In this document: in pieces, positions 373-42,905 of the stretch | Position numbering within the stretch: the first letter of the stretch is position 1 | Layout of the letters: every line of letters starts with the position of its first letter | Origin: an uncultured Alphaproteobacteria bacterium | GTDB taxonomy: Bacteria > Pseudomonadota > Alphaproteobacteria > Rs-D84 | Reading direction: 5' to 3' | NCBI GenBank assembly: GCA_947168075.1 | Contig: CAMVKK010000002.1 | Coordinates: 1 to 45,705, forward strand | Length of the DNA stretch: 45,705 bases | The notes under the pieces: model-generated | What the model saw: only the letters and a program-made list of their open reading frames with translations | Told to the model about the DNA's origin: nothing | Databases searched by the model: none | Position numbers and translations under genes: made by a program

Positions 373-1161
373 TTAAACACCCGAATTATTTCTGTTCATC
401 ATATTTTGCGATTTGGTGACATCAGCGTTTCCTAATCTTATCAAGTTCCGCAAACTATTCAAACAATCTCTGAAATTCTGTCTTGTTGAAATGGTGCTAG
501 ATTTCTTACAAAAATCTTTTACCTTTTCTTTGTCGCAGACTTTTGTATCACAAGTATCAATAACCAGCGCATAGTCATTAGCCAATTGTTTCTTTAATTC
601 CGACGTTACATTTTCACCATTGTTTGAACTGTTGTATATGGTGTTCGCATTTGCATGCAAACATTCATACACCTTGGCTGGTGTTAATTCATTATTGCAA
701 TTGCTAACGCCGGCAATGAATATATTTCTGTCGCTGCTGCGGAATTGGGTTGACGACGACCCGGTTGAAACACCCGAATAGGATGAACCGCCCGTGTCAC
801 CATCCGCGCCGGCGGCCATTAATTTGGTTGTCAAAACCGCCTTTTCCAATTGCGTTTTAAAGCGTTTTAATGTCGCGTCCAGGTATTCATACTGCTTATA
901 CATCTGTTGCGTCATTACGGTCGATTTTAATGCAACCACGTCGCGCATTAATTGTTTATCGGATTCGGTCGATGGATTTTCAACCTCGCCTATGTTATAG
1001 ACATGTGTCGAACACAGCGCGATTTCCGGATTAATACGGTCGTTACTATCCTTGCCACAGCCATTATCCGTTGTCGCCGCAAACGCCGGCACAGCCAGCA
1101 ATGCCGCCACACTTACTGCGCCAAGTAATTTACCGTTAAAGATGTTTTTATTGTTTTTCAT
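373..1161 (-). CDS. secreted Cys-rich protein C (262 aa), unknown family
   Basis: ORF track gives 373..1182. I prefer the ATG at 1161 because it overlaps the upstream stop as ATGA and gives a Sec signal peptide (MKNNKNIFNGKLLGAVSVAALLAVPAFA|ATT). There are 8 Cys in the mature part. I recognised no family. Confidence 0.75.
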   Translation of the reverse strand: MKNNKNIFNGKLLGAVSVAALLAVPAFAATTDNGCGKDSNDRINPEIALCSTHVYNIGEVENPSTESDKQLMRDVVALKSTVMTQQMYKQYEYLDATLKRFKTQLEKAVLTTKLMAAGADGDTGGSSYSGVSTGSSSTQFRSSDRNIFIAGVSNCNNELTPAKVYECLHANANTIYNSSNNGENVTSELKKQLANDYALVIDTCDTKVCDKEKVKDFCKKSSTISTRQNFRDCLNSLRNLIRLGNADVTKSQNMMNRNNSGV

Positions 1162-2990
1162 TTTCCTATCGCTTTCGAACATTTCAAAAAGTCTCTGGCC
1201 GCACTACAATCGCATATACCGTTAACAAGTATTCCACCACCCAAAATTTCACATTGTGTTCTTTTGACATTATCAACAACAGATTTTGTATTGTTATTAA
1301 AATCATCGACCATCTGCTCATCCAATCTTTTTTCTTGTGTTATCGACATTGGGTTATTTATCGCCTGTGACAGTTGCGTTTTAAGATTGTTCGATAATTG
1401 TGTTGTGGCTTGGTTATCATACCCATTTGCCACAGGCATTTCATCTGTCACTTCTTTTACAGCAAACGAATTATCAACACACACCTTGGCTGGCAAAGTC
1501 TTTAAAGAAACGATTTTTTCCAAATCCGCCAGCGATTTTTGATTAACCGCACAGAATTTTATTCCATCATCCTTTGGTGTTGTGGCTTTTCCGCCCAAAC
1601 GACCCGCGCCATAAACACTTGGTGCATCTTGTTCAATAATACGTTGCAGGGTTTCTATATCAATACTCGCGCCCTTTTTACGGTTACGGAACAGCGCGGA
1701 TGTTTCCAACATATCGGACATACAGCCAACACGAATCATATTCAATTCGCCGTCTTCAGGATTCAACCAATTATAGCGCACTGCTTCCCCATCGGGAATC
1801 AACCCCAACGGCTGGCATCCACCATCGGATACGGGAATAATTTTACCAATAGTACATTCCGCACCACCAACCACAGTGCCACCACCCGATATGTATCGAC
1901 CATCAGGATCTCTCTTACAATTGTCTGTAGTATAACGAAAATCTTTAACTTTGCCATCAGAATCTTTGTCGCACATATAACGTCCCCAAACATTGCAGGA
2001 ATCGTTAAGCATCATATAAATATCGGTAATATCAACCCCAACAGATTGCGCCAAAATTAATGCGTCATACACTTCGTCCAAAACATTGTCATATGGTTCA
2101 AAGAAATCCATCGCTTTCTGTTTAAAGGTTTTTACGCGCCTTGGCCCGGTGCAATTATTCCCCTTGCTGTCACAGCCCGCATATTCAAACACATCGGTCA
2201 TTGTGGTTTTTAACGCCTTCATTTGTGTTTCGGCGTTTTCAATTGCCGACATTATTTGCCCGGTAATCTGTTCCCGCGCCAAAATATCCGCCGACACACC
2301 GTTTTGTGCAGCAATCTGTTGCGCGGTGGTTAATGCGTTTGCCGCCACCACCTGGGCATCATTTAATTCGGTACCGGTTGTGGTATTATCAACGGTCGTT
2401 GCGCGTGCGGTTGTTGCCTCTGCAATGGCCTGGGCGGTTAACTGTTTTTGTTCTTCCAGTGCGGTTTGCAATTGTGCAACGGTTTCGGCATTTTGTGCCG
2501 CCATTTGCGATTGCATTTGCTGCATTTGCTGTTGCATTTGTGCCATTTGCTGTGCGCTTTGTGCGGCGGCGGCATTTGCCGCGGCGGCCTGGGCCGCGTT
2601 GGATTTAGCCGTGCTCTGTGCCACCAGTTGCGCCGAAATATAGTCCACCAAATCATCGCCATATTGCACGCAAGCCTCGTTCGAACGGACACAGCCCGCA
2701 ACAATGGTCGCCGTTACATCCATATCCACGCACCCGCCATTGGCGCACTTTGGTTGTGCACAGCGCAAAACAATTGCATTGCAATTACCAAAGTCCGCCA
2801 CCGGCATATCAACCGCATCCACGCCCGAACGCACGTTCATCAACGAATTCCAGTTATTATTATTTGTCGCACCCGACCCGCCATTGTACGCGGTCAGGTT
2901 ATTTCCACGCGTAGACGGCACAGGCGCAGAATCCGCGCCAAACGGCACCAATGCCAATGCCAACAATAAAAATCTGGCTATTGATTTCAT
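1158..2990 (-). CDS. secreted Cys-rich protein B (610 aa) with a Q/A/M-rich coiled-coil-like segment, unknown family
   Basis: ORF track gives 1158..3035. The internal ATG at 2990 gives a signal peptide (MKSIARFLLLALALVPFGADSAP) and is preceded by GGAAAGAGAGAA. The longer start would run through the predicted promoter. About 20 Cys, including CNAIVLRCAQPKCANGGC. Confidence 0.75.
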   Translation of the reverse strand: MKSIARFLLLALALVPFGADSAPVPSTRGNNLTAYNGGSGATNNNNWNSLMNVRSGVDAVDMPVADFGNCNAIVLRCAQPKCANGGCVDMDVTATIVAGCVRSNEACVQYGDDLVDYISAQLVAQSTAKSNAAQAAAANAAAAQSAQQMAQMQQQMQQMQSQMAAQNAETVAQLQTALEEQKQLTAQAIAEATTARATTVDNTTTGTELNDAQVVAANALTTAQQIAAQNGVSADILAREQITGQIMSAIENAETQMKALKTTMTDVFEYAGCDSKGNNCTGPRRVKTFKQKAMDFFEPYDNVLDEVYDALILAQSVGVDITDIYMMLNDSCNVWGRYMCDKDSDGKVKDFRYTTDNCKRDPDGRYISGGGTVVGGAECTIGKIIPVSDGGCQPLGLIPDGEAVRYNWLNPEDGELNMIRVGCMSDMLETSALFRNRKKGASIDIETLQRIIEQDAPSVYGAGRLGGKATTPKDDGIKFCAVNQKSLADLEKIVSLKTLPAKVCVDNSFAVKEVTDEMPVANGYDNQATTQLSNNLKTQLSQAINNPMSITQEKRLDEQMVDDFNNNTKSVVDNVKRTQCEILGGGILVNGICDCSAARDFLKCSKAIGK

Positions 2991-3006
2991 TTCTCTCTTT
3001 CCATTA

Positions 3007-3035
3007 ATTTTATCACAAAAAACACCGGGTGGCAA
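3007..3035 (-). promoter_or_regulatory. candidate sigma-70 promoter for the B-C operon
   Basis: The minus strand reads TTGCCA (3035-3030), a 17 nt spacer, then TAAAAT (3012-3007), about 17 nt upstream of ATG 2990. Upstream lie two 11-bp direct repeats ACTAACCACTA (3074-3064 and 3054-3044). Confidence 0.4.
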
Positions 3036-3195: not shown

Positions 3196-6100
3196 TTATT
3201 CCAAAGATGTTGTGATAATGTCGCCATAGTTACCGGCTTCGTCCCCACCGATATAGCATGTGATATGACGGCCGACATTATTCATCCATTCCTGCTGTTC
3301 AGCGGTGAAATTAGTACGGTTTTGTTCCTTTAATATTTGCGCCGTTGTAACACCACCAATAGCACTGGTCAGCCCCGCACCAGTAATATCAACCATTGCG
3401 CGACCACCACCATTGTTCCAGAAGTTTTTATCTTCCTGGGCTTGCGACGGCTGTTGCGACAACTTATTAGACATATCCACACAGTCGTTATACACAGACA
3501 TTACCGCATTAGAAACTTTTGTACTATTTGCCGCTGTTTGTGGACTTGTAAGAACAGAATCCACTGTCACGAGTTTCGCACCTTCTTGACTATTTACTGT
3601 TCGTTGCACATACGACACCAAATCAGCCGTTTTTACTTGCATATCTGTCAACTGGTCACCTGAACAACTTGAAGATGTGCAAGCTTCTGCCGCTCGTCTG
3701 GCTTTGGTTGCCATATCCATACAAGTAGTGTAAACCTGCTGCTTGCTATTCGTGTTCATTTTTGTATTGTTCTTATTTTGTGTTGTCTTTAACAATCCGC
3801 CCAAACCGGTTTGAGATTGCAAAAGGTCTGTACCAACACCACCGGCGATCGCGGACAGTACCGACGCACCCGCGACACCCCACTTTTGGGCATTGGTCAA
3901 ATTACCATTTTTGGACGTACCAAGTTTTTCCGCTGCGACTTCTTCGGACAATGCGACCAAATCCTTTTCCGGAATCCATGAACCGCATGTGAACGAATCG
4001 CCAACCGCAAAGTACGCCGTGGTCCACGATTTGTTACGCATTGCTTCCTGAATCTTTTTATCATCCGATTGCAATGTTACACGCACGCGACAGAACGACC
4101 CATACAAATCGTTACTGGCCTCGAACTGTGATGGTTTCAAACCGTTTACATTATACGCCGCAGGAACCTTTCTTGACGCTTTTAATTTAGCCCACATAAA
4201 TGTAGAACCCAAATCACGGTTGCTTAAAATACCACCCGCGCTGTTTGCCGCCAAACACATATTCTGTTCAGCAGTCAATTTTGCATTATATGTTGCCTGG
4301 GCCTCTTTTTCGATATCAACCATAACCTGTTGCAACAATGTTTCGGCTTCGTTATTCAAAACATAGTCCGAATATGGCACATATTCCTTATCGTCATACA
4401 CGCACCCATTGGAATCAACGGTGTCGCACGGTGCTAAATCATTTTTATTGCATCCTTTGTTACTTGCGACATCATCATCCGATGGATGGCACATACCTGT
4501 TTCAACATCACTCTCTGTTTTGGCTATATCAACCACTTTGGTCGAATTTGCATCCAACCAAGCATCACGAACGCTGCTATTTGTTCCCCAATTGCCGTAA
4601 TCGCTGGACTTTGCCTTGGCGGTTTGTATTGCCAAGTGTTCTTCGCAAGACGATGCGTTTTTAACAGTATCCAGACACAGACCGATAACAATGTTATTAT
4701 CCAACACGCCACCCATCTTGTTCATAGACTTATCAAAACTGCCGCCCAAATCACCGGTATTGTACGTACCCGAAATAATATCGGTACGGTTGCGATAGCA
4801 ATTTGTATAGTCCGAACCACACATTGATTTGATACAACCCTTTGCCACATTTTCACAAGATTTACGCATTTGTGCAATTGCCGCATCATTATAATTTGTT
4901 GCCAGCGCAGAATTCAACGCCGCGACAACACCAATCGCATCAATTTCCGCCCCATTGTCATATTCCGGGAACAAAACATCAAACGCATCGCGGTTTATAT
5001 ATGAATAAGAATATACACCGGATGAATTTGGATTTGCCGCCGCATATTTACAATACAAATCTGTATTAACAATTGTTGCGCAACCGTTTTTTATTTCATT
5101 ATATGTTTCTTCGCCATTGATACTTTTTTCGGTACCACTTTTAAACACCTGGCTGTAACATGCGGAACCAACACCACCACCACAAACACGCATTGCGCAT
5201 GATTTGATTGTGTCGGTGCATTTCTGCTTTGCCTTGACATCAAACTTATCAACCAAATCCGCAATCTTGGCCCGCATAGATGGGTTCATACGCGCTTCGT
5301 ATGCCAATTCAAACACATCGTCTTGGTTCAACGGGTCACGCAACTGTGCGTTCGTTGGCATCTTGCCATCACCAAGGAATGTCGCATAACAGTATTTGTT
5401 TGCCCCGATTGTTGCAAGGCAAGCATCCTGGACATAACCACGAATTGATTTTTTGTTAATTTCACTTAATTGATTCGTTGTAGAACCCGCCAGTTGTTTC
5501 AATGCTTCTGTTTGTTCATCGGACGTTTTATCCTGGGTTCCCAAAATCGCCGTGGCATATTCAGCCAAAACAGCACGAACAGACCCATCGGTGTCGTTGC
5601 CCTCAAAACATCTGTACGGATTTTGTGAACACGCACCCAGAATACACTGGTCAATGGTTTTATAGCATGTGTTAACCGCATTTGTTGCCGCCAATGCCGC
5701 ACCTTCGGCAATCATTTCACCGATACGACTTTTTTCCGACGGTTTTGCCGTACGACTTGACGAACCAAGTAATTCAATTACACCTTCGGATTGGCAACGC
5801 GCCAATATAGAATCACAGGATACGCGCTGTTTACGAAAATCGGTATCTGTGGTGCAAAGTTCGAAATCTTCGCCACAAACGGAATCCCGCCGCAGACACG
5901 ATGTAACACGGCGAACACAGGTTGATGTATCATACTTGTTATTAATTGCCGCCGCGGTTATCATTTGACCCAGAACACTGCCGTCCGTTGGGTATGTGTA
6001 ATCGGTGATTTCGCCATATGTATTCTTGGTTACGCCCGATGCCAACGCCGAAACAGTTGATGTTCCAAACAGACTTTCCACACCCGCCGACGAACATTGC

Positions 6101-6414
6101 GCCAATGTGCCCAGACAGTTTGGCATTTTACCGTGGAACAAGACCTTGGTCGTGCATTCCTCAAAATTTTCGCCACAGGCATCCGCACCACGAATACACT
6201 CGTTGTACGCATCAATACATTCGGCATTTGCCAACAATGCGGACGATGTCGTTGTGCCGGTTGTCGTGGAACTGGCGGTCGATGTTTTTACGACCATGGT
6301 CGGCATACGCGATGACGCGGTCGTCACAATTCCGGGCCGCGCAGTCGCCGCATATGATGCCGGCATAGCGCACAAAAGCGCCATTAAACCAACTGTTTTA
6401 TGAAAGAAATGCAT
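3196..6414 (-). CDS. large secreted Cys-rich repeat protein A (1072 aa), unknown family
   Basis: ORF track gives 3196..6423 with a GTG start. The ATG at 6414 has a GGAG 8 nt upstream. Signal peptide MHFFHKTVGLMALLCAMPASYA|A, then an S/T-rich linker. About 42 Cys in recurring spacings, and two Gly-zipper-like segments near the C-terminus (WGVAGASVLSAIAGGVGTDLL; MVDITGAGLTSAIGGVTT). Confidence 0.8.
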   Translation of the reverse strand: MHFFHKTVGLMALLCAMPASYAATARPGIVTTASSRMPTMVVKTSTASSTTTGTTTSSALLANAECIDAYNECIRGADACGENFEECTTKVLFHGKMPNCLGTLAQCSSAGVESLFGTSTVSALASGVTKNTYGEITDYTYPTDGSVLGQMITAAAINNKYDTSTCVRRVTSCLRRDSVCGEDFELCTTDTDFRKQRVSCDSILARCQSEGVIELLGSSSRTAKPSEKSRIGEMIAEGAALAATNAVNTCYKTIDQCILGACSQNPYRCFEGNDTDGSVRAVLAEYATAILGTQDKTSDEQTEALKQLAGSTTNQLSEINKKSIRGYVQDACLATIGANKYCYATFLGDGKMPTNAQLRDPLNQDDVFELAYEARMNPSMRAKIADLVDKFDVKAKQKCTDTIKSCAMRVCGGGVGSACYSQVFKSGTEKSINGEETYNEIKNGCATIVNTDLYCKYAAANPNSSGVYSYSYINRDAFDVLFPEYDNGAEIDAIGVVAALNSALATNYNDAAIAQMRKSCENVAKGCIKSMCGSDYTNCYRNRTDIISGTYNTGDLGGSFDKSMNKMGGVLDNNIVIGLCLDTVKNASSCEEHLAIQTAKAKSSDYGNWGTNSSVRDAWLDANSTKVVDIAKTESDVETGMCHPSDDDVASNKGCNKNDLAPCDTVDSNGCVYDDKEYVPYSDYVLNNEAETLLQQVMVDIEKEAQATYNAKLTAEQNMCLAANSAGGILSNRDLGSTFMWAKLKASRKVPAAYNVNGLKPSQFEASNDLYGSFCRVRVTLQSDDKKIQEAMRNKSWTTAYFAVGDSFTCGSWIPEKDLVALSEEVAAEKLGTSKNGNLTNAQKWGVAGASVLSAIAGGVGTDLLQSQTGLGGLLKTTQNKNNTKMNTNSKQQVYTTCMDMATKARRAAEACTSSSCSGDQLTDMQVKTADLVSYVQRTVNSQEGAKLVTVDSVLTSPQTAANSTKVSNAVMSVYNDCVDMSNKLSQQPSQAQEDKNFWNNGGGRAMVDITGAGLTSAIGGVTTAQILKEQNRTNFTAEQQEWMNNVGRHITCYIGGDEAGNYGDIITTSLE

Positions 6415-6497
6415 TTGTCTCACTCCATTATTTTTATTTTATTATATCATATTTTCGGATTTAGACAAACGAAAAAGTGCGTTTTTTGAAATGTTTT

Positions 6498-7451
6498 TTA
6501 TACCGATTCCAATAAATATTTTAATTCCGCCATATCGTCCGGCAACGGTGCACGGAAATGCATTTTTTCGCCCGTCACGGGGTGGGTAAATTCCAGTACC
6601 TCGGCATGCAACATTTGACCATTATGCGTTTTAAGGAAATCCAACAAATCCGCATTCTTGACCGACCCCAACCGCGTGGACGCACGACCATAGACCGTAT
6701 CACATAAAACCGGAAAACCATGCGCCGATAAATGCACGCGAATCTGGTGCGTGCGCCCCGTCAACAGCGTACAGCGAAACGCCGATACCCCCGCCCGTGG
6801 CCAAGTATCCATTACCGCGACCAATGTAGTTGCGGGTTTGCCCCCGCTCTTTACCATACTCATCTTTTGGCGATTACGGGACGACCGCGCAATATTGCCT
6901 GTAATTGTTGCGCTTTCCCAGTTTGGAACACCCCACACAAACGCAACATATTTTCGCGTCAAATCGTGCGCCATAAAAGTTTTTACCAAACCGTGATATG
7001 CGGCATCAGACTTTGCAAAAACCATAACGCCACTGGTATCCTTGTCCAAACGATGCACCACCCCCGGTCGCGTTGTGCCACCGGCGGACGCCAACGGGGT
7101 ATGTGCCAAAATGTTTTGAACCAATGTCCCGGTTTTGTTCCCAGCGGACGGATACATAACAACCCCGCGCGGCTTGTTAATCACAATAATATCGTCATCT
7201 TCGTACAAAATATCTAAATCAAAATCGGTTGAAATATTGTCCGCCGCAATGGTTGTCGCGGGTGCATCCGGTATTTCGACAATCAATTCATCGCCCATAC
7301 GAACTTTATCCGAAAAGCGCACCGGCGCACCATTGCGAGTTACGGAAAATTTCTGAATTTCACTGCGTGAAAAATCGGGCATAGCGCCGACCAAGAACTT
7401 ATCGACACGAACGCCCGCATTTAATTCATCAACAACAAATTCACGAATCAC
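6498..7451 (-). CDS. rluD: 23S rRNA pseudouridine synthase, RluA/RluD family
   Basis: S4-like N-terminus (VRVDKFL), catalytic HRLDKDTSG and GRTHQIRVHL motifs, 317 aa, GTG start. Confidence 0.85.
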   Translation of the reverse strand: MIREFVVDELNAGVRVDKFLVGAMPDFSRSEIQKFSVTRNGAPVRFSDKVRMGDELIVEIPDAPATTIAADNISTDFDLDILYEDDDIIVINKPRGVVMYPSAGNKTGTLVQNILAHTPLASAGGTTRPGVVHRLDKDTSGVMVFAKSDAAYHGLVKTFMAHDLTRKYVAFVWGVPNWESATITGNIARSSRNRQKMSMVKSGGKPATTLVAVMDTWPRAGVSAFRCTLLTGRTHQIRVHLSAHGFPVLCDTVYGRASTRLGSVKNADLLDFLKTHNGQMLHAEVLEFTHPVTGEKMHFRAPLPDDMAELKYLLESV

Positions 7452-7459
7452 GAAAACAC

Positions 7460-7933
7460 CTATTTATATTCAGACCAATCTTTGCCTTTTTGGCACCTGG
7501 ACAAATCAATCGTTAAATCACGACCATCGGCATCAACCGGGCATGTCAGCATTCCTGTCCCCGCCGCTTGGTCTGCATCACGCGCGGCGTTGCGCCATGA
7601 AAAGTTAATCGTTTCCGGTGGGTATACACACGCAATGTGTAATTCGCCATCATGTTTGTTATTCGGCCCCAACCAGACCCGCACGCCATACCCCAATCCA
7701 TAGCACGGGAACCCGTCCAGGTAATATAAAACCAACCCTTTATTCCCAATCAATTTAGAATCCGGCTTGAAATGACCATTGTATTCGTTCAGTAACAGGC
7801 CGGTTAATGCCTGCCAATCTGTACTGGTGGAAAAAACGCTGACCCGCGGGGTCGGCGGTGGTGCCGGTGGCGTATCAGCAATCGCCCCAAAAGCACTCAG
7901 AATAATAGCAAACGCAACCAGTGTTTTTTTCAT
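7460..7933 (-). CDS. small secreted protein (157 aa), unknown function
   Basis: Signal peptide MKKTLVAFAIILSAFGAIA|D, a Pro-rich stretch (PPAPPPTP) and 4 Cys. Its start overlaps the upstream stop (TAATG). Confidence 0.65.
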   Translation of the reverse strand: MKKTLVAFAIILSAFGAIADTPPAPPPTPRVSVFSTSTDWQALTGLLLNEYNGHFKPDSKLIGNKGLVLYYLDGFPCYGLGYGVRVWLGPNNKHDGELHIACVYPPETINFSWRNAARDADQAAGTGMLTCPVDADGRDLTIDLSRCQKGKDWSEYK

Positions 7934-8442
7934 TACTTATCCCCCGTTTGTAATTCAACCGTTATTTTTTTGACCCCATCAGTCGGCGTAGTGAGCATAT
8001 GATTAAATTCAACCGATGCGCCCGATTCAACCAGTGTTGCCGATGGCATAAATTTCTGCCGCGCGATTTCACGACCCGCCGCATCACGCGACACAACGAT
8101 TAAGTCCGGCACACCATATATTTCCGTTGACTGATTAATAATCGCGCCACGAACCGCAAAGCGTGGCACGCCACTATTATCGACAACGGTCTTTATTTCC
8201 GTTAATTGCGCAATAATTGGTTCCCGATTTGCGTTTTTGATTTTAGATTGCACCACCACTGCGGTTGCAAATACCGCCGCCGAAAGCAATGCACAAAGGG
8301 ACGCAATAAACACCATCCATGCACCACGCCGCGATGGGGTCGCAACCGTCCAAACATGACCACACACAGCACATTTAACCGGCGCAGTCGGTGTTTTATC
8401 CACCGAATATTCTGTTTTGCAAAAATCACATTTTATTTTCAT
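7933..8442 (-). CDS. MJ0042-type zinc-ribbon membrane protein, ZitP-like (Zn ribbon, TM, DUF3426-like C-terminus)
   Basis: The N-terminus MKIKCDFCKTEYSV..VKCAVCGHVWTV has two CxxC pairs. A single TM follows (WMVFIASLCALLSAAVFATAVVV), then a roughly 100 aa periplasmic domain. The architecture matches Caulobacter ZitP as I remember it. Confidence 0.65.
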   Translation of the reverse strand: MKIKCDFCKTEYSVDKTPTAPVKCAVCGHVWTVATPSRRGAWMVFIASLCALLSAAVFATAVVVQSKIKNANREPIIAQLTEIKTVVDNSGVPRFAVRGAIINQSTEIYGVPDLIVVSRDAAGREIARQKFMPSATLVESGASVEFNHMLTTPTDGVKKITVELQTGDK

Positions 8443-8464
8443 AACACTTTACCTATACCACAAA

Positions 8465-9781
8465 TTATTCCAAATTCAATAGTCGATATTTCGCACGCAC
8501 CTTTGTCTGAATTTCGTTAATCGCGTTCATAAAGTCCGCCGCCGTTGCGTTTTTATTTGCAGCAACCGAACCAAACACCTGGGTTGCGATGGTTGACGAT
8601 GAAGATTCTTTTTTGGAAATCAATGGTGCCATTCGATTTAGTTCCGCCAATGACATATCTGCAAATTGCGCCGTACCATTTTTCAAATCCCAAAAGAAAT
8701 TGGAATTTTTAGAATCTTCTATTTTATTACGCACGACCAAACGCGGTGTAATAGAACCGCTGAATCCAACAGTTGTAAAAAGTGCAGAAATGCGCCCACC
8801 CGTCATATCCAAAGCCTGATTAACACTAAGCACAGCAACTTTTTCATCACTGGAAACAGACATACCCGACAATTCCAAATTTGTTACCCATAAATTCGCC
8901 GTATTAAAGTTGGAAAATTTTCCTAAATCAGATAATGTTAGTGCGCCCGCAATTTCCATATTCTTTGAATCAGACGACAACGACCCAACACAAGTTGCGT
9001 TTTTTGTTTCAAATGCGCTGTCTATGGTGGTGCGATTATTAAACACGACCTTGTTCGCGGCAATATCTATTGATTGAAAAATTTCGTCAAAACCCGCCGA
9101 TTTTACATCAAACCGCGTTGCATTAATTATATCGTGTCCGCCCAGACTTAACCCGCTTAACATTGTTGCATCGTCCGGCGAATCCGAAGGAACCCGCCAA
9201 AGATATAACGCATTATCGCGATTAACAGATGTTGTTCCGACAATTCCATTTGTCGCTTCTATTCCCAAATCAATGGTATCGGTATGCCACGCACCAAATG
9301 TACCGTATGCGTGTGTGCCTTCGACAAAGCCCATATCACTGCCGCCGGCGGCAACAATTTCACGTGTCCGCATTGGGGATATAGAATCGTCAGACATAAT
9401 AACCACACCCTGTAATGTCGCCTGGCCGGTGGCATCGGACGATTTTAAAATACGCAACTGATATTTATCTGCGTGTTCTGAAACGATTGCATCTGGCACC
9501 CCATATTCCGACAAATCACCAATTTCAACGCGTATAATAGATTTTCCCGCAACATTAAGCAATTTATCACGATTCATCACAATATATCGTTCCAATGCAT
9601 TTTGCACATCCTGCATCTGGCGCGCGACTGCAATATTTTCCACACGCATAATAGAATCTTGCTGATACCTGAACAAGAACGGCAACACCACCGAAACGAT
9701 AGCAACACTCATCAGCAATTCAACCAACATTCCACCACGTTGTAATGCACGATTTTCAAAAATGCGACTTTTAAAAACCAT
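8465..9781 (-). CDS. oversized type-IV-pilin-like protein P3 (438 aa)
   Basis: ORF track gives 8465..9823. The ATG at 9781 is preceded by G9. The N-terminus MVFKSRIFENRALQRG|GMLVELLMSVAIVSVVLPFLF is prepilin-type: a leader ending in G, Glu at +5, and a hydrophobic helix. It shares a central motif with P1 and P2. Confidence 0.7.
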   Translation of the reverse strand: MVFKSRIFENRALQRGGMLVELLMSVAIVSVVLPFLFRYQQDSIMRVENIAVARQMQDVQNALERYIVMNRDKLLNVAGKSIIRVEIGDLSEYGVPDAIVSEHADKYQLRILKSSDATGQATLQGVVIMSDDSISPMRTREIVAAGGSDMGFVEGTHAYGTFGAWHTDTIDLGIEATNGIVGTTSVNRDNALYLWRVPSDSPDDATMLSGLSLGGHDIINATRFDVKSAGFDEIFQSIDIAANKVVFNNRTTIDSAFETKNATCVGSLSSDSKNMEIAGALTLSDLGKFSNFNTANLWVTNLELSGMSVSSDEKVAVLSVNQALDMTGGRISALFTTVGFSGSITPRLVVRNKIEDSKNSNFFWDLKNGTAQFADMSLAELNRMAPLISKKESSSSTIATQVFGSVAANKNATAADFMNAINEIQTKVRAKYRLLNLE

Positions 9782-10988
9782 TCCCCCCCCCGATATTTTG
9801 TGGAACATATGTTTGCCAATCACTGGTCATCAGTGCACCAAATTCTGTCTTGCTCGGTATTGCCGGCATTTGCGCGCGCGATAACACCAACGCAGTAAAA
9901 TTTGGTGGTGTTAATGACGGGAAAGACCAATTACCAAACTTGATTGGTGCATCGGTGGACATCATTAATTCACCAGATACAGTTAAACCCGCATCTTCGT
10001 AAAACATTATTTCGTTGCTTGTTAAAAACGGCGTATAAACAGAACCAGTCTTTATACCAACAAATCCACTTATTGTGCGTGCGCCACTGGATTTAAGATT
10101 AAAGTTCCGCGCAACATTTACCGACTTTGTTACGGTGGCACGGTCAGCAATTACACGCCCAGATGTCGTATATGTCGTTCCGTTTAATTTGTCGGCATAG
10201 ATATTTCGAAAACCCATGATATCGCCCGTTACACGCAACGAATCAATCGAAACATTTCCGCCAGTCATATTTGCGCCGTTGGTAAAATACACACTTTGCG
10301 CGACCAGATCTTCTGATTTAACAAATGTTGCCGTTGCATCCTGGATTCGTGTCGCAGATGCTGAAACGCCACCAACATCAAACACGTCATTTCCACCCAT
10401 ATTTAAATCGCGCATCATTACATTCAAATCGTCATCCCCGGACGAACCGCGATGTAAATATTTTGTATTATCTTCGCCAAACACACTGCGTGATATACGA
10501 TATATCAAATCACCGACATAAAAGTCCGGGGCACTTACCGCCCAAGTGCGACCGTATGCAACACCGTCCGCACCAACAACAGCGGCATCTTCGCCAATAT
10601 GATGTGCGATACTGGCGGTTCTTAAATTATGCGCATTTATATCAAATGCCAAATAAACATCAGTTATTGTTGTTCCACGCACAGAATATTTATCAATAAA
10701 CCCCGCGTGTGCATCCGTAGCAATCAATTCTAATTCTTCGTCCGTCATACGAATTTGTGCAACATCGGGCCATTCGTCCTGGTTCAGACGAATAAAATTC
10801 AGAACATTACCGCGTAATTCTGTAATTTTATGCGCGGTTGCCATATCGTTAATATTGCGATTCGTTTCTGATATCTGGGAATAAACCAATGGTGCCGCTA
10901 TGGCAACAATAGCCATGGAAAGCAGCACCTCTAACACACTGGCGCCACGATTTAATTCATCAAAAATTTTTGTTTTAATTGCAACCAC
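9771..10988 (-). CDS. oversized type-IV-pilin-like protein P2 (405 aa)
   Basis: GTG start overlapping the P1 stop by 14 nt. N-terminus MVAIKTKIFDELNRG|ASVLEVLLSMAIVAIAAPLVY with Glu at +5. Central motif YLHRGSSGDDDLNVMMRDLNMGGNDVFDV, followed by a G/N/T/V-rich beta-strand-like region. Confidence 0.7.
   Translation of the reverse strand: MVAIKTKIFDELNRGASVLEVLLSMAIVAIAAPLVYSQISETNRNINDMATAHKITELRGNVLNFIRLNQDEWPDVAQIRMTDEELELIATDAHAGFIDKYSVRGTTITDVYLAFDINAHNLRTASIAHHIGEDAAVVGADGVAYGRTWAVSAPDFYVGDLIYRISRSVFGEDNTKYLHRGSSGDDDLNVMMRDLNMGGNDVFDVGGVSASATRIQDATATFVKSEDLVAQSVYFTNGANMTGGNVSIDSLRVTGDIMGFRNIYADKLNGTTYTTSGRVIADRATVTKSVNVARNFNLKSSGARTISGFVGIKTGSVYTPFLTSNEIMFYEDAGLTVSGELMMSTDAPIKFGNWSFPSLTPPNFTALVLSRAQMPAIPSKTEFGALMTSDWQTYVPQNIGGGNGF
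9783..9791 (-). repeat. G9 homopolymer (C9 on the + strand) at the P2/P3 junction
   Basis: Counted directly: ttCCCCCCCCCgat. Confidence 0.9.
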
Positions 10989-12333
10989 TTTTTCCCGCCA
11001 ACAAACATTGTTTTATATCTATTCTTTTTTCCAAACGTTGCCAGTACACATATTGGCATATTATGTACTGCGACAGCGATTTTTGGTTATACACACCATT
11101 TAACGATGATATAATTGAACGACAATCAACAGTATTTGAATTGCTGTCTGATGGTCGCGCCAAAATTTCAAACGTACTGTTATCAATTGTCGCAACATAT
11201 GCATCTGGCAACAAAGATGTTCCACTGGGGCGAATATCCAAAACAACCGCCCCCGTCAACCCCCGCGACAATGCATCAGATGTCTGGTCCCGCAATGTTA
11301 TATTTGATGCATAAATCACATTAGTATCGATACCACTGTTGCTGCTATATTCCAGACTGTTCGAATTAATATACACATCTTGACCACGCGAAGCGTTTAT
11401 AAAAGAATTAACATCCAACCGTTCAACACCGAAATTAATTTTATCGGTAACAACATTGCCACGAATATTCCAATTTGCAGGTCCCGTAAAACTGGTTCGA
11501 CCCGCAGTCATAGAAAAATCATAAACGGCGGCATTATTTGTCGTTATACTGCCTGCATCGCCGTACGCAGATATTGTTTTTCCAAAAACATTTCCGACAA
11601 TCAACGCCCCACGGGTAAGCGACAAGGCACTTTCACCAGTTTGCGATTGAAATATAGCCTTGTCTGCAACAATAACAGAAATGGTATTTCGTACCTTTCG
11701 CCCAGATTCGACACCGTTGATAGTTAAAATTCCAAGTTCTGCACCATCAAATTCACCACGGCGTGCAGATACCCGGCCGGCATTAGAAAATTCAAAATTT
11801 CCCATATCTAAATCAACCAAAAACGCCCCTGAATCAACATCAACTTCGTTACGGCGAACAACATCAGAATAAATGTTATCTAAAACAATGCCAACCTGGA
11901 CATCATTGTCGCCGCCATCCGCAGCATAGAACCCAATACGCCGTATCAATTCTGTGCGTTTAAGTTCATCCAAATTTCCACCACGCAAATCCAGATATGC
12001 AGAAACAGATTCAAAATCTTTGTTTATAACCAACGATATGTCCTGTCCCAGTGCGGTTTTGGGGACAAAACCCAACGGTAATCCATACGGTTCCAATGTA
12101 TCTGAAAAAGATTTGCCCGATATTATTGTTTGTTCATACGGTAATTTATGTGCATTTTCGCGAATATAAATCCGCGCCGCGGTGGTGGCATTATCAATCT
12201 GTCGTGTGGTTGAATACATTAACGCATCATTTTCGCGGTCCAGTAATTTTATTGCAACAAACGGGATAAACGCGAACAGCAATGTCAGCGATAACAATGC
12301 CTGTAACAGAAAATTTCCGCGTTGATTGTACAA
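10975..12333 (-). CDS. oversized type-IV-pilin-like protein P1 (452 aa)
   Basis: TTG start with a strong SD (AGGAGGG, 7 nt upstream). N-terminus MYNQRG|NFLLQALLSLTLLFAFIPFV with Gln at +5. There is a Cys cluster at the C-terminus. Confidence 0.7.
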   Translation of the reverse strand: MYNQRGNFLLQALLSLTLLFAFIPFVAIKLLDRENDALMYSTTRQIDNATTAARIYIRENAHKLPYEQTIISGKSFSDTLEPYGLPLGFVPKTALGQDISLVINKDFESVSAYLDLRGGNLDELKRTELIRRIGFYAADGGDNDVQVGIVLDNIYSDVVRRNEVDVDSGAFLVDLDMGNFEFSNAGRVSARRGEFDGAELGILTINGVESGRKVRNTISVIVADKAIFQSQTGESALSLTRGALIVGNVFGKTISAYGDAGSITTNNAAVYDFSMTAGRTSFTGPANWNIRGNVVTDKINFGVERLDVNSFINASRGQDVYINSNSLEYSSNSGIDTNVIYASNITLRDQTSDALSRGLTGAVVLDIRPSGTSLLPDAYVATIDNSTFEILARPSDSNSNTVDCRSIISSLNGVYNQKSLSQYIICQYVYWQRLEKRIDIKQCLLAGKSGCN

Positions 12334-12356
12334 AAAAAATCCCTCCTACGGTTCCA

Positions 12357-12385
12357 AGAATAGCAATTGAAAAAAAATATTGCAA
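12357..12385 (-). promoter_or_regulatory. candidate sigma-70 promoter for the P1-P2-P3 operon
   Basis: The minus strand reads TTGCAA (12385-12380), a 17 nt spacer, then TATTCT (12362-12357), just upstream of the AGGAGGG SD. Confidence 0.3.
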
Positions 12386-12478
12386 TCAGTTTTAAGATAC
12401 ATTAACATTGTCTATGTTTAAAGTGTGGATGGCAAAAAATCCACAGAGATAATTTTCCTTTGTATAAAAAGAAAGAAC

Positions 12479-12775
12479 ATGCAAAACAAAAAAAATCAAA
12501 CGTCTAATGTTGGGCAAATGATTCAGCGCTGTCATAAATGGCGCCAGAAAAGAAAACAATACATTGACCAGGCGCGTCAAACGTCCGATGAAATTGAACG
12601 CGAACGTTTATTGCAATCGGCGGAACATTACGGTCGTATTGTTAATGCAGAACAGGAAAAAATTGATTCGTCCCGTGGAACAAACGAAAAAATTCCGGAT
12701 GTTGTGCCGGAAACCACGGATAATTCTGATGATGAAGAAATTCCATTGCCAGACTTTATCGAAAACCTTAAATAA
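12479..12775 (+). CDS. DUF4167-like small basic/acidic protein (98 aa)
   Basis: ORF track gives 12425..12775; I prefer ATG 12479. A basic N-terminus (MQNKKNQTSN..), then ..YIDQARQTSDEIERERLLQSAEHYGRIV, which resembles the AENYxQHAEHYxR core of alphaproteobacterial DUF4167 proteins (from memory), and an acidic tail. Confidence 0.55.
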   Translation: MQNKKNQTSNVGQMIQRCHKWRQKRKQYIDQARQTSDEIERERLLQSAEHYGRIVNAEQEKIDSSRGTNEKIPDVVPETTDNSDDEEIPLPDFIENLK

Positions 12776-12849
12776 TCGTAACATACGATATATTTGTTGT
12801 TGAAATTTGAATGCGGTTTGCTATCCTTGCCACAAAAGGAAATTTTAGC

Positions 12850-14391
12850 ATGGATAATAGTTACACTGTTTTAGCCCGTAAATACCGCAGCCAGGATTTT
12901 GATTCCCTTATTGGCCAGGATGTTTTGGTCAAAACACTTACCACTGCGATTAATACGGGGCGTATTGCGCATGCGTATATTTTTACCGGAATTCGTGGAA
13001 CTGGAAAAACCAGTACCGCCCGTATTTTGGCCAAGGCTTTGAACTGTCTGTCATCTGACCGTCCAACGGCAAAGCCGTGTGGTGTATGTGAAAATTGTCG
13101 TGCAATTGCCGCCGGGCAACATATTGACGTATTGGAAATTGACGCTGCGTCACATACGGGCGTTGATAACATGCGTGAAATACTGGACGCGGTTCAGTAT
13201 CGTCCAACCAATGGCCGGTACAAGGTTTATATTATTGACGAAGTCCACATGTTATCACAAAGCGCATTTAATGCGTTGCTTAAAACATTAGAAGAACCAC
13301 CTGCACATGTAATTTTCATATTGGCAACCACCGAAATACGAAAAGTTCCTGTAACGATTCTGTCGCGGTGCCAACGTTTTGATTTGGTTCGTGTTCCTGT
13401 TGATACATTAAAGAAACACTTTGCATGGATAGCAGACCAAGAAAAAATCGAATTATCCGATGGTGCAAATGAATTATTGGCGCGTGCGGCGGATGGTTCT
13501 GTTCGTGATGGATTATCATTACTGGACCAGGCAATTGCACAAACCGGTGGTCATGTTGACGAAGCGTCCGTATTAAACATGCTTAAACGCGCCGATCGTG
13601 GTGTTGTTATGGATATTATGGAAACTGTTTTAAGTGGCGACACCGCAACCGCACTGGAAAAGGTGGATAATATTTATAATAACGGTGCCGATTTATCTAT
13701 GTTATTGACCGATATGATGGAATGGACACATTGGGCGACCCGTATGCATCCATCTGTTCGTGGTGGTGATGTTATGACCGCACCATATACCGCGGATCAG
13801 CGCACCAAGATTCGTGAAATTGATTCACACGTAACATTAAACACTCTTTCCCGCATATGGCAGGTTATGGTGGCATCCGTCCCTGAAATGGCGGCAACTG
13901 GAAACCCAAAACAATGTTTTGATATGTTAATCGTGCGTTTGATGCACATTGCAGAAATGCCATCTGTTGCGGAAATTTTAAAAAAGCAACCGTCTGCACC
14001 GGTGGCAACACCGATTGAAAAAACCGCACCCGCAATGCCGGCACCAAAAACTGTAAAAATAACATCAGCAACAGAATTAGCATCTGAATTACAATCGTCA
14101 CGGGAAATTTTGCTGTACACATATTATACGAATAATATCGAAGTTTCTGATTTTGCGGACGGTAACATAAAATATTTTGATCGCGGAACAGATGCCGAAT
14201 TTGCGCAAAAATTAACCAAATGGTTAAATGAAAAGACGGGTCACGCGTGGACATTGGTTTGCGAAGAAAAATCTGAAAGCGTTCACACTGTATCCGAACA
14301 GAAACGCGAAGAATTGGAATCAGATCCATTAATTGCCGATGCAATGAGCCTGTTCGAAGGGGCTGAAATTATCGGTTCAACTAAAAAGTAA
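12850..14391 (+). CDS. dnaX: DNA polymerase III subunit tau/gamma
   Basis: ORF track gives 12811..14391. ATG 12850 has an AAGGAA SD. Walker A GIRGTGKTSTARILAKALNC, Zn module CGVCENCRAI, DEVHML, SRCQRF. Confidence 0.93.
   Translation: MDNSYTVLARKYRSQDFDSLIGQDVLVKTLTTAINTGRIAHAYIFTGIRGTGKTSTARILAKALNCLSSDRPTAKPCGVCENCRAIAAGQHIDVLEIDAASHTGVDNMREILDAVQYRPTNGRYKVYIIDEVHMLSQSAFNALLKTLEEPPAHVIFILATTEIRKVPVTILSRCQRFDLVRVPVDTLKKHFAWIADQEKIELSDGANELLARAADGSVRDGLSLLDQAIAQTGGHVDEASVLNMLKRADRGVVMDIMETVLSGDTATALEKVDNIYNNGADLSMLLTDMMEWTHWATRMHPSVRGGDVMTAPYTADQRTKIREIDSHVTLNTLSRIWQVMVASVPEMAATGNPKQCFDMLIVRLMHIAEMPSVAEILKKQPSAPVATPIEKTAPAMPAPKTVKITSATELASELQSSREILLYTYYTNNIEVSDFADGNIKYFDRGTDAEFAQKLTKWLNEKTGHAWTLVCEEKSESVHTVSEQKREELESDPLIADAMSLFEGAEIIGSTKK
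13980..13986 (+). promoter_or_regulatory. candidate -1 programmed frameshift heptamer A_AAA_AAG in dnaX
   Basis: The zero frame reads ttA AAA AAG caa (..ILKKQ..). The -1 frame then reads GCA ACC GTC TGC ACC GGT GGC AAC ACC GAT TGA, with the stop at 14016-14018. Confidence 0.35.
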
Positions 14392-14411
14392 AAAATCGGG
14401 GGGAAAGAAAG

Positions 14412-14870
14412 ATGAGACAAGAATCTGGACGTTCACTAATCGAAATTATTGGCGTATTGGCAATTGGTGCCATTATGTCGGTTGCAGCAATTAAGATGTA
14501 CGGACAAATTCGTACGACACAAACGCGCACAATTGTATCCAGTGAATTAGAACAATTGGTAAAAAATGTAAAATTGCTTACGGGGGCGCGTGGTTCATAT
14601 GCGGGGGTTTCCGTTGATTATCTGGTCAAAGCGGGCGCGTTAAAATCACCCCGCGCACCAATTGGTGGTGACGGATGGTCGGTCCAGCCCAGTTTTGATG
14701 AAAAAACTTTTTCTATTAATTTAGTTGAACTGTCATCTGGCGAATGTGAATATTTCGCAATAAAGAAACAACCATGGGCAACAACCATTTTAATTAATGG
14801 CACAGAATTGAACGGCACATCAAATTGCTTTTCAACAAACACGAACCAGGTTTCTTTTATAGTGGAATAA
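14412..14870 (+). CDS. type IV pilin / pseudopilin (152 aa)
   Basis: MRQESG|RSLIEIIGVLAIGAIMSVAAIKMY has a 6-aa leader, Glu at +5 and a hydrophobic alpha1-N. A single C-terminal Cys pair (C112, C139) is typical of the pilin D-region. The SD is GGGGGGAAAG. Confidence 0.8.
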   Translation: MRQESGRSLIEIIGVLAIGAIMSVAAIKMYGQIRTTQTRTIVSSELEQLVKNVKLLTGARGSYAGVSVDYLVKAGALKSPRAPIGGDGWSVQPSFDEKTFSINLVELSSGECEYFAIKKQPWATTILINGTELNGTSNCFSTNTNQVSFIVE

Positions 14871-14871
14871 A

Positions 14872-15555
14872 TTGAAAATAATAAAATTCATTTTTCCAAT
14901 TATTGCATATTGCACACTTGTCGGGTGCATGTCGTATCACAGTCCAGAACGCACCACTTGGCCAAATTATCTGCGTGGTGCCAGTTTTACAGATATGACC
15001 GAAACATCACGCGTTGCAAAAAAGCCCGTACTGATGGGGGCGGGCGGACGCGTTATCAGCCAAACTGTGGACGGTGGCACAAAATCAGAATACGGAGACA
15101 AAGTTGCAAATGAAAACGCGTTGGCTTTGGCATATATGTCTGAATTGGAATATAAATTATACGATGCGCTACGCAAACCCGGCATTTCGGTCCAGCGCGC
15201 CGGCACAGATGTAGTTATTATTCTGGTACGCGATGCCATTATGGAATTAAATGTTGCCGATATATCTGCTGATGGTGCCGACACATTAAAAATTATTTCA
15301 AAAATACTTAATAAATATGATGCCACATTTATCGAGATCGCAGGTTACACCGATGCTATGCGTGACAAACACGCATCCGCGGCATTATCAAACGATATGG
15401 CATCACGCACCGCGGTATATTTAACCCAGCATGGAATTATTCCACAACGGCTTTTTATTGTCGGTCGTGGTGCGGCACGCCCCATCGCAGCCCAGGATGA
15501 CATAGGTCGTCTGACTAATCGCCGTGTTGAAATTCGGGTTGCCCCCGTGCGATAA
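14872..15555 (+). CDS. OmpA/MotB-domain lipoprotein (peptidoglycan-binding)
   Basis: TTG start 1 nt after the pilin stop. Lipobox LVG|C. The C-terminal OmpA-like domain reads ..IEIAGYTDA....NRRVEIRV. Confidence 0.8.
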   Translation: MKIIKFIFPIIAYCTLVGCMSYHSPERTTWPNYLRGASFTDMTETSRVAKKPVLMGAGGRVISQTVDGGTKSEYGDKVANENALALAYMSELEYKLYDALRKPGISVQRAGTDVVIILVRDAIMELNVADISADGADTLKIISKILNKYDATFIEIAGYTDAMRDKHASAALSNDMASRTAVYLTQHGIIPQRLFIVGRGAARPIAAQDDIGRLTNRRVEIRVAPVR

Positions 15556-30020: not shown

Positions 30021-30089
30021 AGTTCAAAGTGGAAAGTTCAAATAATGTGTGCCGGCGAATGCCGGCACTACTTTATTATATTTGAACTT
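30021..30089. repeat. palindromic intergenic repeat, copy 2
   Basis: AGTTCAAAGTGGAAAGTTCAAATAATGTGTGCCGGCGAATGCCGGCACTACTTTATTATATTTGAACTT, in the same orientation as copy 1. It fills the infB/virD4 convergent gap. Confidence 0.75.
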
Positions 30090-42730: not shown

Positions 42731-42823
42731 AAAATCTCTCTCACACAAGGTCTATGGAAATACAATAGCAATTTTTATGTTGAATTACAATATTTTTTTG
42801 TCTAGGATTGGAACACAATTAAA

Positions 42824-42897
42824 GGCCAGGTGGCAGAGTGGTTATGCAGAGGACTGCAAATCCTTGTATGCCGGTTCGATTCCGACCCTGGCCTCCA
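42824..42897 (+). tRNA. tRNA-Cys (anticodon GCA)
   Basis: Acceptor GGCCAGG/CCTGGCC, anticodon loop CTGCAAA, T loop TTCGATT, discriminator U73 (the Cys identity base), encoded CCA. There is one mismatch in the T stem. Confidence 0.85.
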
Positions 42898-42905
42898 TCT
42901 TTATC

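Follow-up and report, generated by a model that had tools for sequence, protein, structure and literature searches.

Three consecutive genes on the minus strand of a 45,705-nucleotide stretch of DNA from an uncultured alphaproteobacterium of the order Rs-D84 (GenBank assembly GCA_947168075.1, contig CAMVKK010000002.1; this whole stretch is called the window below) encode proteins, here named P1, P2, and P3, that on the evidence of profile comparisons are unannotated, divergent members of the PilV/Shufflon_N (PF04917) superfamily. The bacterium belongs to Candidatus Enterousia, a member of this order whose genomes of 0.75 to 1.0 Mb carry about 900 genes (PMC12306168). The kind of protein is known, PilV being a large minor pilin; what is new here is that it is chromosomal, shufflon-less, and triplicated in an ultra-reduced symbiont. 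Judging from residue conservation and from gene order among relatives, P1 to P3 have a genuine type IV pilin N-terminus and constitute an ancient, fixed triplet of chromosomal PilV homologs. We propose that the trio probably, if not assuredly, forms, by analogy with known minor pilins, a heterotrimer that would act as the tip or the primer of a type IVb-like pilus, with which the bacterium attaches to partner cells.

An initial annotation, made from the DNA letters alone, had described three overlapping minus-strand genes for proteins of 452, 405, and 438 amino acids (aa), and the list of open reading frames (ORFs) gives identical places and starts (Table 1), with overlaps of 14 nt between P1 and P2 and of 11 nt between P2 and P3. 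The AGGAGGG Shine-Dalgarno sequence that it had placed before the TTG of P1 was likewise confirmed, at positions 12347 to 12341. For P3, the mechanically called ORF opens at GTG 9823 and would yield 452 aa; we place the start at the ATG because the orthologs are 435 to 440 aa long. Lengths of about 451 to 452 aa among P1 orthologs and 400 to 405 aa among P2 orthologs also support the assigned starts.

The same annotation regarded the three proteins as paralogs that share a central motif, and both ideas held up. P2 and P3 align over about 367 aa in BLASTP (E = 9e-15; hhalign, 98.4%, E = 1e-14), and P1 and P3 are linked by BLASTP (E = 4e-6) and by an hhalign block of 207 columns that includes the central motif (89%, E = 2e-6). 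The similarity of P1 to P2 is weak (E = 2e-4). As their sequences stand, then, the three are paralogs, with a similarity far above chance for P2-P3 and P1-P3. The motif is also visible in the alignment to PilV described below.

The N-termini had been read as class III prepilin signal peptides, a reading that family-wide comparison sustains. P1 begins with MYNQRG↓NFLLQ, P2 with ..NRG↓ASVLE, and P3 with ..QRG↓GMLVE (arrows mark the predicted cleavage point), and across about 80 species these become ..RG↓NFLLQALLAL, ..RG↓ASxLEVLLxMAI, and ..RG↓(G/S)MLVELL. In an alignment of 79 diverse family members, which included representatives of clusters formed at 50% identity, Gly-1 was the sole invariant column, and Glu+5 and Pro+18 were kept in at least 90% of sequences. 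Nearly all full-length cluster representatives show G-x4-E followed by a hydrophobic stretch. A 90%-identity database holds 941 homologs of P1, 1111 of P2, and 830 of P3. Among the P1 homologs, G6 and Q11 are invariant, as are four C-terminal cysteines (C404, C426, C443, and C451); among those of P2, G15 and A16 are invariant and E20 nearly so. The +5 residue of Enterousia P1 is thus Gln, not Glu, while Glu stands at +5 in the first-of-trio protein of a genome outside the Enterousia set (locus L087, GCA_016936785.1); GspK-type subunits of type II secretion systems (T2SSs) lack Glu+5 too. A profile of the N-terminal 70 aa matched the solved pilin PilA-N of Geobacter (9egp, E = 6.4e-7; 7tgg, E = 1.7e-4) with Gly-1 and Glu+5 in register, and more weakly matched PilA of Thermus and others. 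Matches to the Pfam N_methyl family were subthreshold only, found in 12 of the 79 members with a best score of 17 bits against a cutoff of 21.2 bits.

The central motif had been tentatively likened to the constant region of shufflon PilV proteins. Profiles of P2 and P3, phmmer searches, and the motif alignment all bear this comparison out. As a reference we aligned four PilV sequences of about 375 to 490 aa obtained by a tblastn search. Against this reference, the P3 family aligned in hhalign over 195 columns (96.5%, E = 8.6e-10) and the P2 family over 263 columns from Gly-1 on (89.3%, E = 2e-6). The direct hhalign comparison of the P1 family with PilV was not significant (E = 0.022); the P1 family does match the L087 first-of-trio protein (96%, E = 2.5e-9), which scores 26.6 bits against Shufflon_N, where the cutoff is 27.5 bits. 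Searching from the other side, a lone Enterobacter plasmid PilV used as a phmmer query found Enterousia P3 orthologs down to E = 6e-11.

One family member (P0393) connects the two groups. Its alignment to the P2/P3 profile spans the entire protein (E = 2e-61), and it scores 44 bits against PF04917 (E = 2.8e-11), above the 27.5-bit gathering cutoff. Since its residues 44 to 251 correspond to PF04917 positions 13 to 227, the match reaches well past the hydrophobic helix. In tblastn, the same protein finds genes annotated as [quoted passage not shown] (E = 1e-5). Another member (P0428) scored 24 bits against PF04917, below the cutoff. Comparison of P1 to P3 themselves with N_methyl and Shufflon_N gave nothing above the cutoff, and the homology to PilV emerges through profiles and relatives. 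Matches of the trio to LrgB, PsiA, and a Chlorovirus-repeat family in the Pfam and NCBIfam scans were set aside as noise.

Within the aligned region, the central motif of the trio, in which the alpha/beta pilin head of each protein ends, coincides with the signature of PilV, of the pattern hydrophobic-Y/L-x-R ... N-x-M ... L-x-hydrophobic-G-G-x-D-I-x-N. The PilV-type motif of P2 reads YLHRGSSGDDDLNVMMRDLNMGGNDV and that of P3 reads LYLWRVPSDSPDDATMLSGLSLGGHDIIN. In the alignment to PilV, DFLYRKAVSGHPELNAMSTNLSLGGNDINS of PilV falls together with KYLHRGSSGDDDLNVMMRDLNMGGNDVFD of P2 and the P3 motif just given, and the paired alignment sets FLYRKAVSGHPELNAMSTNLSLGGNDIN of PilV against KYLHRGSSGDDDLNVMMRDLNMGGNDVF of P2.

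Structure prediction provided an extended N-terminal helix: the AlphaFold models of P2 and P3 both contain one of 55 to 56 residues. The P3 model, built on the diverse 79-sequence alignment (mean predicted local distance difference test [pLDDT] score, 74), consists of a helix at residues 14 to 69, an alpha/beta domain up to about residue 185 (pLDDT, 85 to 93), a beta-rich stretch at 224 to 326 (65 to 70), and C-terminal helices at 379 to 434 (80 to 90). In P2, a helix at 18 to 72 is followed by beta strands (pLDDT, 75 to 85), and the N-terminal 170 residues fold like those of P3; with 30 close homologs as input, residues 170 to 405 remained unmodeled (pLDDT below 35). The weak top matches in Foldseek were the beta-helix protein OatWY, tapirin, and PilS (1q5f, E = 1.3), which are not evidence. 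A pilin fold of the head is plausible but not demonstrated, because Foldseek found nothing significant. At the profile level, a full-length P2-family profile returned nothing relevant from the PDB, another full-length search recovered only the N-terminal helix of the Geobacter pilin, and PilV itself had no solved relative there.

The suggestion that the C-terminal halves are beta-solenoid-like was not confirmed. AlphaFold placed there only the beta-rich stretch of moderate confidence given above for P3. Autocorrelation of the C-terminal parts of P1 to P3 reached z of at most 2.8 relative to shuffled sequences, like a nonrepeat control, compared with z = 5.6 for the 11-residue repeat of PilV. 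Furthermore, the C-terminal halves had no Pfam repeat or bactofilin match, and the beta-helix matches in Foldseek were at E of about 0.6 only.

Nearly all homologs in the 90%-identity database are unnamed or "hypothetical" proteins from entries labeled "MAG: Alphaproteobacteria bacterium" (MAG, metagenome-assembled genome) of rumen and gut metagenomes. A scan of one genome per species placed the P3 family in 219 GTDB species; each of the best 80 is either Candidatus Enterousia or an unnamed alphaproteobacterium, with ruminants, birds, horses, and humans as the hosts. An exhaustive profile search yielded 979 clusters at 50% identity, 305 of them at E ≤ 1e-10. Some variants of about 740 to 1,060 aa share the N-terminal 220 to 300 residues only, and the long variants scanned (523 to 1,059 aa) contained no credible Pfam domain, with one subthreshold match. 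Four of about 1,000 aa on short Logan contigs (P0492, P0495, P0503, and P0507) combine the prepilin N-terminus and PilV-type motif with some 700 extra residues, among which are repeats rich in Gly, Thr, and Ala and a conserved C-terminal domain that is rich in Cys and Trp and has no credible counterpart in Pfam.

Gene order was compared in 87 related loci of about 21 kb. All 83 loci of the Enterousia type have the order P1-P2-P3, a ZitP-like gene, a gene for a 157-aa secreted protein, and RluD, so the operon is conserved in relatives. Outside the Enterousia set, trios of 412 to 653 aa in the same a-b-c order were found in L084 (a "Rickettsiales bacterium" MAG), L085/L086, L087, L092, and L093 (GCA_031260805.1), each in a different housekeeping context; in L084 the trio is followed by TruB. 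The recurrence of trios in the same order outside Enterousia implies that the triplication predates the divergence of these lineages. Median identity to the P1 to P3 proteins of the window is 56 to 60% across 76 to 80 species, compared with 74 to 79% for the neighboring housekeeping proteins RluD, DnaX, LpxD, and FabZ. From their conservation, P1 to P3 appear to be under purifying selection over their full length in a reduced genome.

Table 1. Coordinates of the trio and its conserved neighbors in the window
Feature	Positions	Strand	Description
P1	10975..12333	-	TTG start, 452 aa, first of trio
P2	9771..10988	-	GTG start, 405 aa, second of trio
P3	8465..9781	-	ATG start, 438 aa, third of trio
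Shine-Dalgarno AGGAGGG	12341..12347	-	7 nt upstream of P1 TTG 12333; read from sequence
ZitP-like bitopic protein	7933..8442	-	169 aa; cytoplasmic MJ0042-type CxxC..CxxC zinc ribbon, one transmembrane segment, periplasmic DUF3426-like domain
Small secreted protein	7460..7933	-	157 aa; signal peptide, PPAPPPTP Pro-rich linker, 4 Cys
RluD-type pseudouridine synthase	6498..7451	-	PF00849 in orthologous loci; last invariant co-oriented gene; 83/83 loci
PilS-like type IV(b) pilin	14412..14870	+	152 aa; N-terminus MRQESG↓RSLIE, two invariant Cys

Downstream of P3 by 23 nt in every locus lies the ZitP-like gene, which is present in 83/83 loci. The window protein matches Zn_ribbon_4 (E = 9.5e-6) and, above the cutoff, MJ0042_CXXC, and has a transmembrane segment at residues 39 to 57; all 42 orthologs scanned match Zn_ribbon_4, and 31 of the 42 match DUF3426. 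The ATG of the gene for the 157-aa protein overlaps the stop codon of the ZitP-like gene; this gene too is found in 83/83 loci, and its product matches no Pfam or NCBIfam family. RluD is probably an operon passenger and not a functional part.

A small pilin encoded on the opposite strand accompanies the trio. Its residues G6, E11, C112, and C139 are invariant. The window protein itself has subthreshold matches to N_methyl (E = 0.0076) and PilS (E = 0.027), and 33 of 44 orthologs match Pfam PilS (best E = 4.8e-5) and 30 of 44 match N_methyl. The best PDB matches of its profile are all pilins, among them geopilin (E = 0.0038) and TcpA (E = 0.018, residues 8 to 124). These similarities make the 152-aa PilS-like protein a candidate major filament subunit. 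Together, dnaX, this pilin, and an OmpA-like lipoprotein adjoin the trio block in 74 loci, and they stay together in a locus that is rearranged (L035). In the window (12811-15555, plus strand), dnaX has the PilS-like pilin and OmpA-like lipoprotein genes after it in place of ybaB/recR, and the lipoprotein gene starts 1 nt after the stop of the pilin gene.

Other genes of the window were recorded alongside. A small, highly charged DUF4167-like protein (12425-12775, plus strand; 77/83 loci) is encoded divergently from P1 and shares its intergenic promoter region. Co-oriented downstream of RluD are genes for three large secreted Cys-rich proteins of 1,075 aa (3196-6423), 625 aa (1158-3035), and 269 aa (373-1182), all on the minus strand. 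These proteins contain coiled-coil-like stretches rich in Ala and Gln and match nothing in Pfam or NCBIfam; they are kept in 65, 30, and 30 of the 83 loci, respectively, and may be surface or contact proteins of the symbiont. A stand-alone VirD4/TraG-type coupling protein of type IV secretion systems (T4SSs) is encoded among housekeeping genes (30089-32302, minus strand), with no other T4SS gene in the window; T4SS genes of Rickettsiales have a scattered arrangement. Apart from the trio, the genes of the window fit a reduced alphaproteobacterium and include DUF4167, DUF2659, the stand-alone VirD4, and Lpt, Lol, and Bam genes. The mechanically called ORF of a RecF/SMC_N-type ATPase (42720-43982, plus strand) opens upstream of a tRNA-Cys gene (42824-42897, plus strand) and reads through it; the true start must lie past the tRNA, because the Pfam match begins at residue 63.

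What might such a set of proteins do? In Enterousia, flagella, respiration, and the greater part of biosynthesis are missing, and the authors who described these genomes infer that the organisms live as obligate symbionts or parasites (PMC12306168). Attachment is the most likely purpose of the trio because the Enterousia genome is below 1 Mb and the organism is thought to depend on other cells. Type IV pili have been proposed as attachment organelles in ectosymbiotic Rickettsiales (PMC9352585). They are inferred to be ancestral in that order and to have been kept mainly in early-branching and ectosymbiotic lineages (PMC10847448, PMC9352585); therefore, their retention in another reduced alphaproteobacterial order is plausible.

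Under the model that we favor, a prepilin peptidase would cleave P1, P2, and P3 after the invariant Gly, and the mature proteins would come together by way of their N-terminal helices to form a heterotrimeric cap. With three genes, this cap would correspond to the tip and priming role proposed for single large minor pilins of type IVb pili such as TcpB, CofB, and PilV. It would prime polymerization of the PilS-like pilin (146 aa when mature) and remain at the tip of a thin type IVb-like pilus, where the C-terminal modules would touch the surface of the partner cell. The cotranscribed ZitP-like protein may help to place or assemble the apparatus at the pole, and the assembly machine would be encoded elsewhere in the genome. 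We base this model on the role of single large type IVb minor pilins, the fixed three-gene order, translational coupling, and the lifestyle of the organism. CofB and TcpB form homotrimers at the pilus tip, which serve as the model for the proposed heterotrimer.

Several results weigh against this model or against its foundations. Neither the 45.7-kb window nor the 87 related loci of about 21 kb contained an ATPase, platform, prepilin peptidase, or secretin, as the initial annotation had already remarked for the vicinity of the trio. In Pfam, the other genes of the window showed housekeeping functions and VirD4 only, none of the unannotated window ORFs is polytopic, so none could hide a peptidase or platform, and phmmer searches of all ORFs of the window and the 87 loci with plasmid PilM, N, O, P, Q, R, S, T, and U returned PilV matches only. 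The one comparative paper on the clade reports type IV pili for the lineage UBA9783 and does not mention them for Rs-D84 (PMC12306168); this silence is suggestive, not a test of absence. A literature search on Rs-D84 and pilins found nothing relevant. In addition, P1 to P3 of the window have no Pfam or NCBIfam match above the cutoff and none to PF04917 at E ≤ 1, and the PilV link is made through profiles and intermediate sequences, for P1 through an intermediate only. The Foldseek search of the P2 and P3 models against the PDB gave no match at E ≤ 0.001 and no significant pilin, and the 152-aa pilin family showed no significant similarity to the one plasmid PilS with which it was compared. Unlike the plasmid adhesin, the trio has no shufflon: the interval 7400-12500 holds only short chance-level repeats, with no sfx-like repeats, and Pfam scans of the window found no recombinase or integrase (Rci) domain. 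The C-terminal modules are well conserved, not hypervariable. Finally, the heterotrimer is deduced from gene number and order only.

An alternative explanation for these data is that the pilins are orphans, the PilB/C/D/Q-type machine having been lost or never acquired, so that the pilin-type anchor has found a new use. P1 to P3 and the 152-aa pilin would then be uncleaved periplasmic or envelope proteins anchored in the inner membrane, or would be assembled by another apparatus such as a T4SS. The empty machinery searches favor this explanation, as do the report of type IV pili for UBA9783 and not for Rs-D84, genomes of only about 900 genes, the position of the trio among housekeeping genes in every lineage examined, and the VirD4-type coupling protein. 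However, Gly-1, Glu+5, and Pro+18 form the most conserved feature of the family and would be expected to decay in a mere membrane anchor; in pilin biology, that pattern is tied to cleavage by the peptidase and to subunit packing in the filament. A PilS-like pilin and a ZitP-like protein are also kept beside the trio, and to find nothing in about 45 kb out of a genome of about 900 kb means little, nor does the silence of one paper decide the matter. We regard orphan pilins as unlikely, though as the main rival.

Taken further, complete genomes of Enterousia and Rs-D84 may truly lack every prepilin peptidase, T2SSE-family ATPase, platform protein, and secretin. One PilS-like pilin and three PilV-like ones, strictly conserved and with the Gly-1/Glu+5 signature still in place, would then work with no type IV filament machine, either assembled by a T4SS or an unrecognized motor or serving an obligate episymbiont as a pilin-anchored complex of the envelope or of cell contact. 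This case seems to us rather unlikely. If the machinery is truly absent, the trio would be one of the few examples in which pilins persist with no type IV filament motor.

A short pseudopilus spanning the periplasm, in place of an adhesive surface pilus, is another conceivable product of the trio and the small pilin, either a T2SS-like piston exporting Cys-rich proteins or a competence pseudopilus feeding ComEC. Public annotations of two family members as "type II secretion system protein" and "pseudopilin PulG" point this way, but those names derive from the generic N-terminal motif. The N-terminus of P2 does have a gspI-type match, yet a weak one at 15.7 bits against a cutoff of 44.35 (XpsI, 14.6 against 150; ComGE, 12 bits), and the specific homologs are PilV and PilS of type IVb pili, not GspH-K or ComG proteins, the PilV links being much stronger. 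The three secreted Cys-rich proteins co-oriented downstream would be suitable cargo; however, their genes are absent from many trio loci, as counted above, and no GspD/E/F gene was found in the neighborhood. As for competence, the clade lacks nucleotide biosynthesis, and DNA could be a nucleotide source; a ComEC/Rec2 gene lies at 1615-3429 of L093, about 6.5 kb upstream of its trio, but this linkage was seen in one locus only. On balance, we find a pseudopilus improbable. That the likeness to pilins is a coincidence and the trio are bitopic membrane proteins of the ordinary sort, each with a signal-anchor helix, as the lack of above-cutoff Pfam/NCBIfam and significant Foldseek matches might suggest, is hardly credible given the register-exact profile matches to solved pilins, the significant PilV matches over 195 to 263 residues beyond the hydrophobic helix, and the family member above the Shufflon_N gathering threshold.

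If the attachment model is right, it would bear on how these organisms contact a partner. Enterousia and its relatives, Alphaproteobacteria that are widespread in gut and rumen and have genomes below 1 Mb, cannot produce most metabolites and presumably live off other cells (PMC12306168). That about 4 kb of so small a genome is spent on three conserved PilV-like proteins, beside a PilS-like pilin and a ZitP-like protein, supplies a concrete candidate for the attachment organelle. A parallel exists in the Saccharibacteria, which need type IV pili for episymbiosis (PMC12206443). The findings also bring into the plasmid-borne PilV/Shufflon_N family a chromosomal clade that is large and unannotated, and they reveal a version with no shufflon.

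Among known systems, the ZitP-like neighbor resembles Caulobacter crescentus ZitP, a polar protein with zinc ribbon, transmembrane helix, and DUF3426 whose periplasmic DUF3426 domain is needed for Tad pilus biogenesis (PMC5182063). The likeness is one of architecture: at 169 aa, the window protein has about half the length of ZitP (311 aa), and ZitP serves the Tad (type IVc) pilus through CpaM, whereas no CpaM was seen here. Pilin N-terminal modules joined to a grafted module are known from Streptococcus sanguinis PilB and PilC, Thermus ComZ, and the T2SS tip pseudopilin GspK. P1 to P3 had no profile match to such modular-pilin families, with gspI, gspJ, and ComGE far below the cutoff.

The trio also resembles TcpB of the toxin-coregulated pilus of Vibrio cholerae and CofB of the enterotoxigenic Escherichia coli pilus CFA/III, minor pilins of more than 400 aa with a pilin domain and extra C-terminal domains. 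No sequence or Foldseek similarity of TcpB or CofB to P1 to P3 was detected, and those systems have one such gene, inside the pilus operon, whereas P1 to P3 are three. TcpB initiates both pilus assembly and retraction (PMC5207764).

The closest likeness is to PilV, minor pilin and tip adhesin of the type IVb thin pilus that IncI1/IncI2 conjugative plasmids such as R64 and TP114 encode. In the pilus of the IncI2 plasmid TP114, the major pilin is PilS and the minor pilin is PilV, which acts as an adhesin (PMC9045228). Like PilV, the trio proteins have a prepilin N-terminus in which position +1 is not Phe, a size within the range of about 375 to 490 aa of the four PilV proteins compared, a homologous region of 200 to 260 N-terminal residues that includes the LYR..ELN.M..L.LGGNDIN motif, and a small PilS-like pilin gene close by. 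PilV is encoded, as in locus L088, in a plasmid pil operon beside the ATPase, platform, peptidase, and secretin genes; the trio, in contrast, is chromosomal and sits among housekeeping genes, between RluD and dnaX in 83/83 loci. P1 to P3 lack the 11-residue repeat that follows the motif in PilV, and their C-terminal parts are unrelated to those of PilV and match no known domain, each paralog having a module of its own. Unlike the single-gene PilV, the trio comprises three diverged paralogs, which suggests that the tip complex, usually built in type IVb pili from one large minor pilin, here takes a heterotrimeric form.

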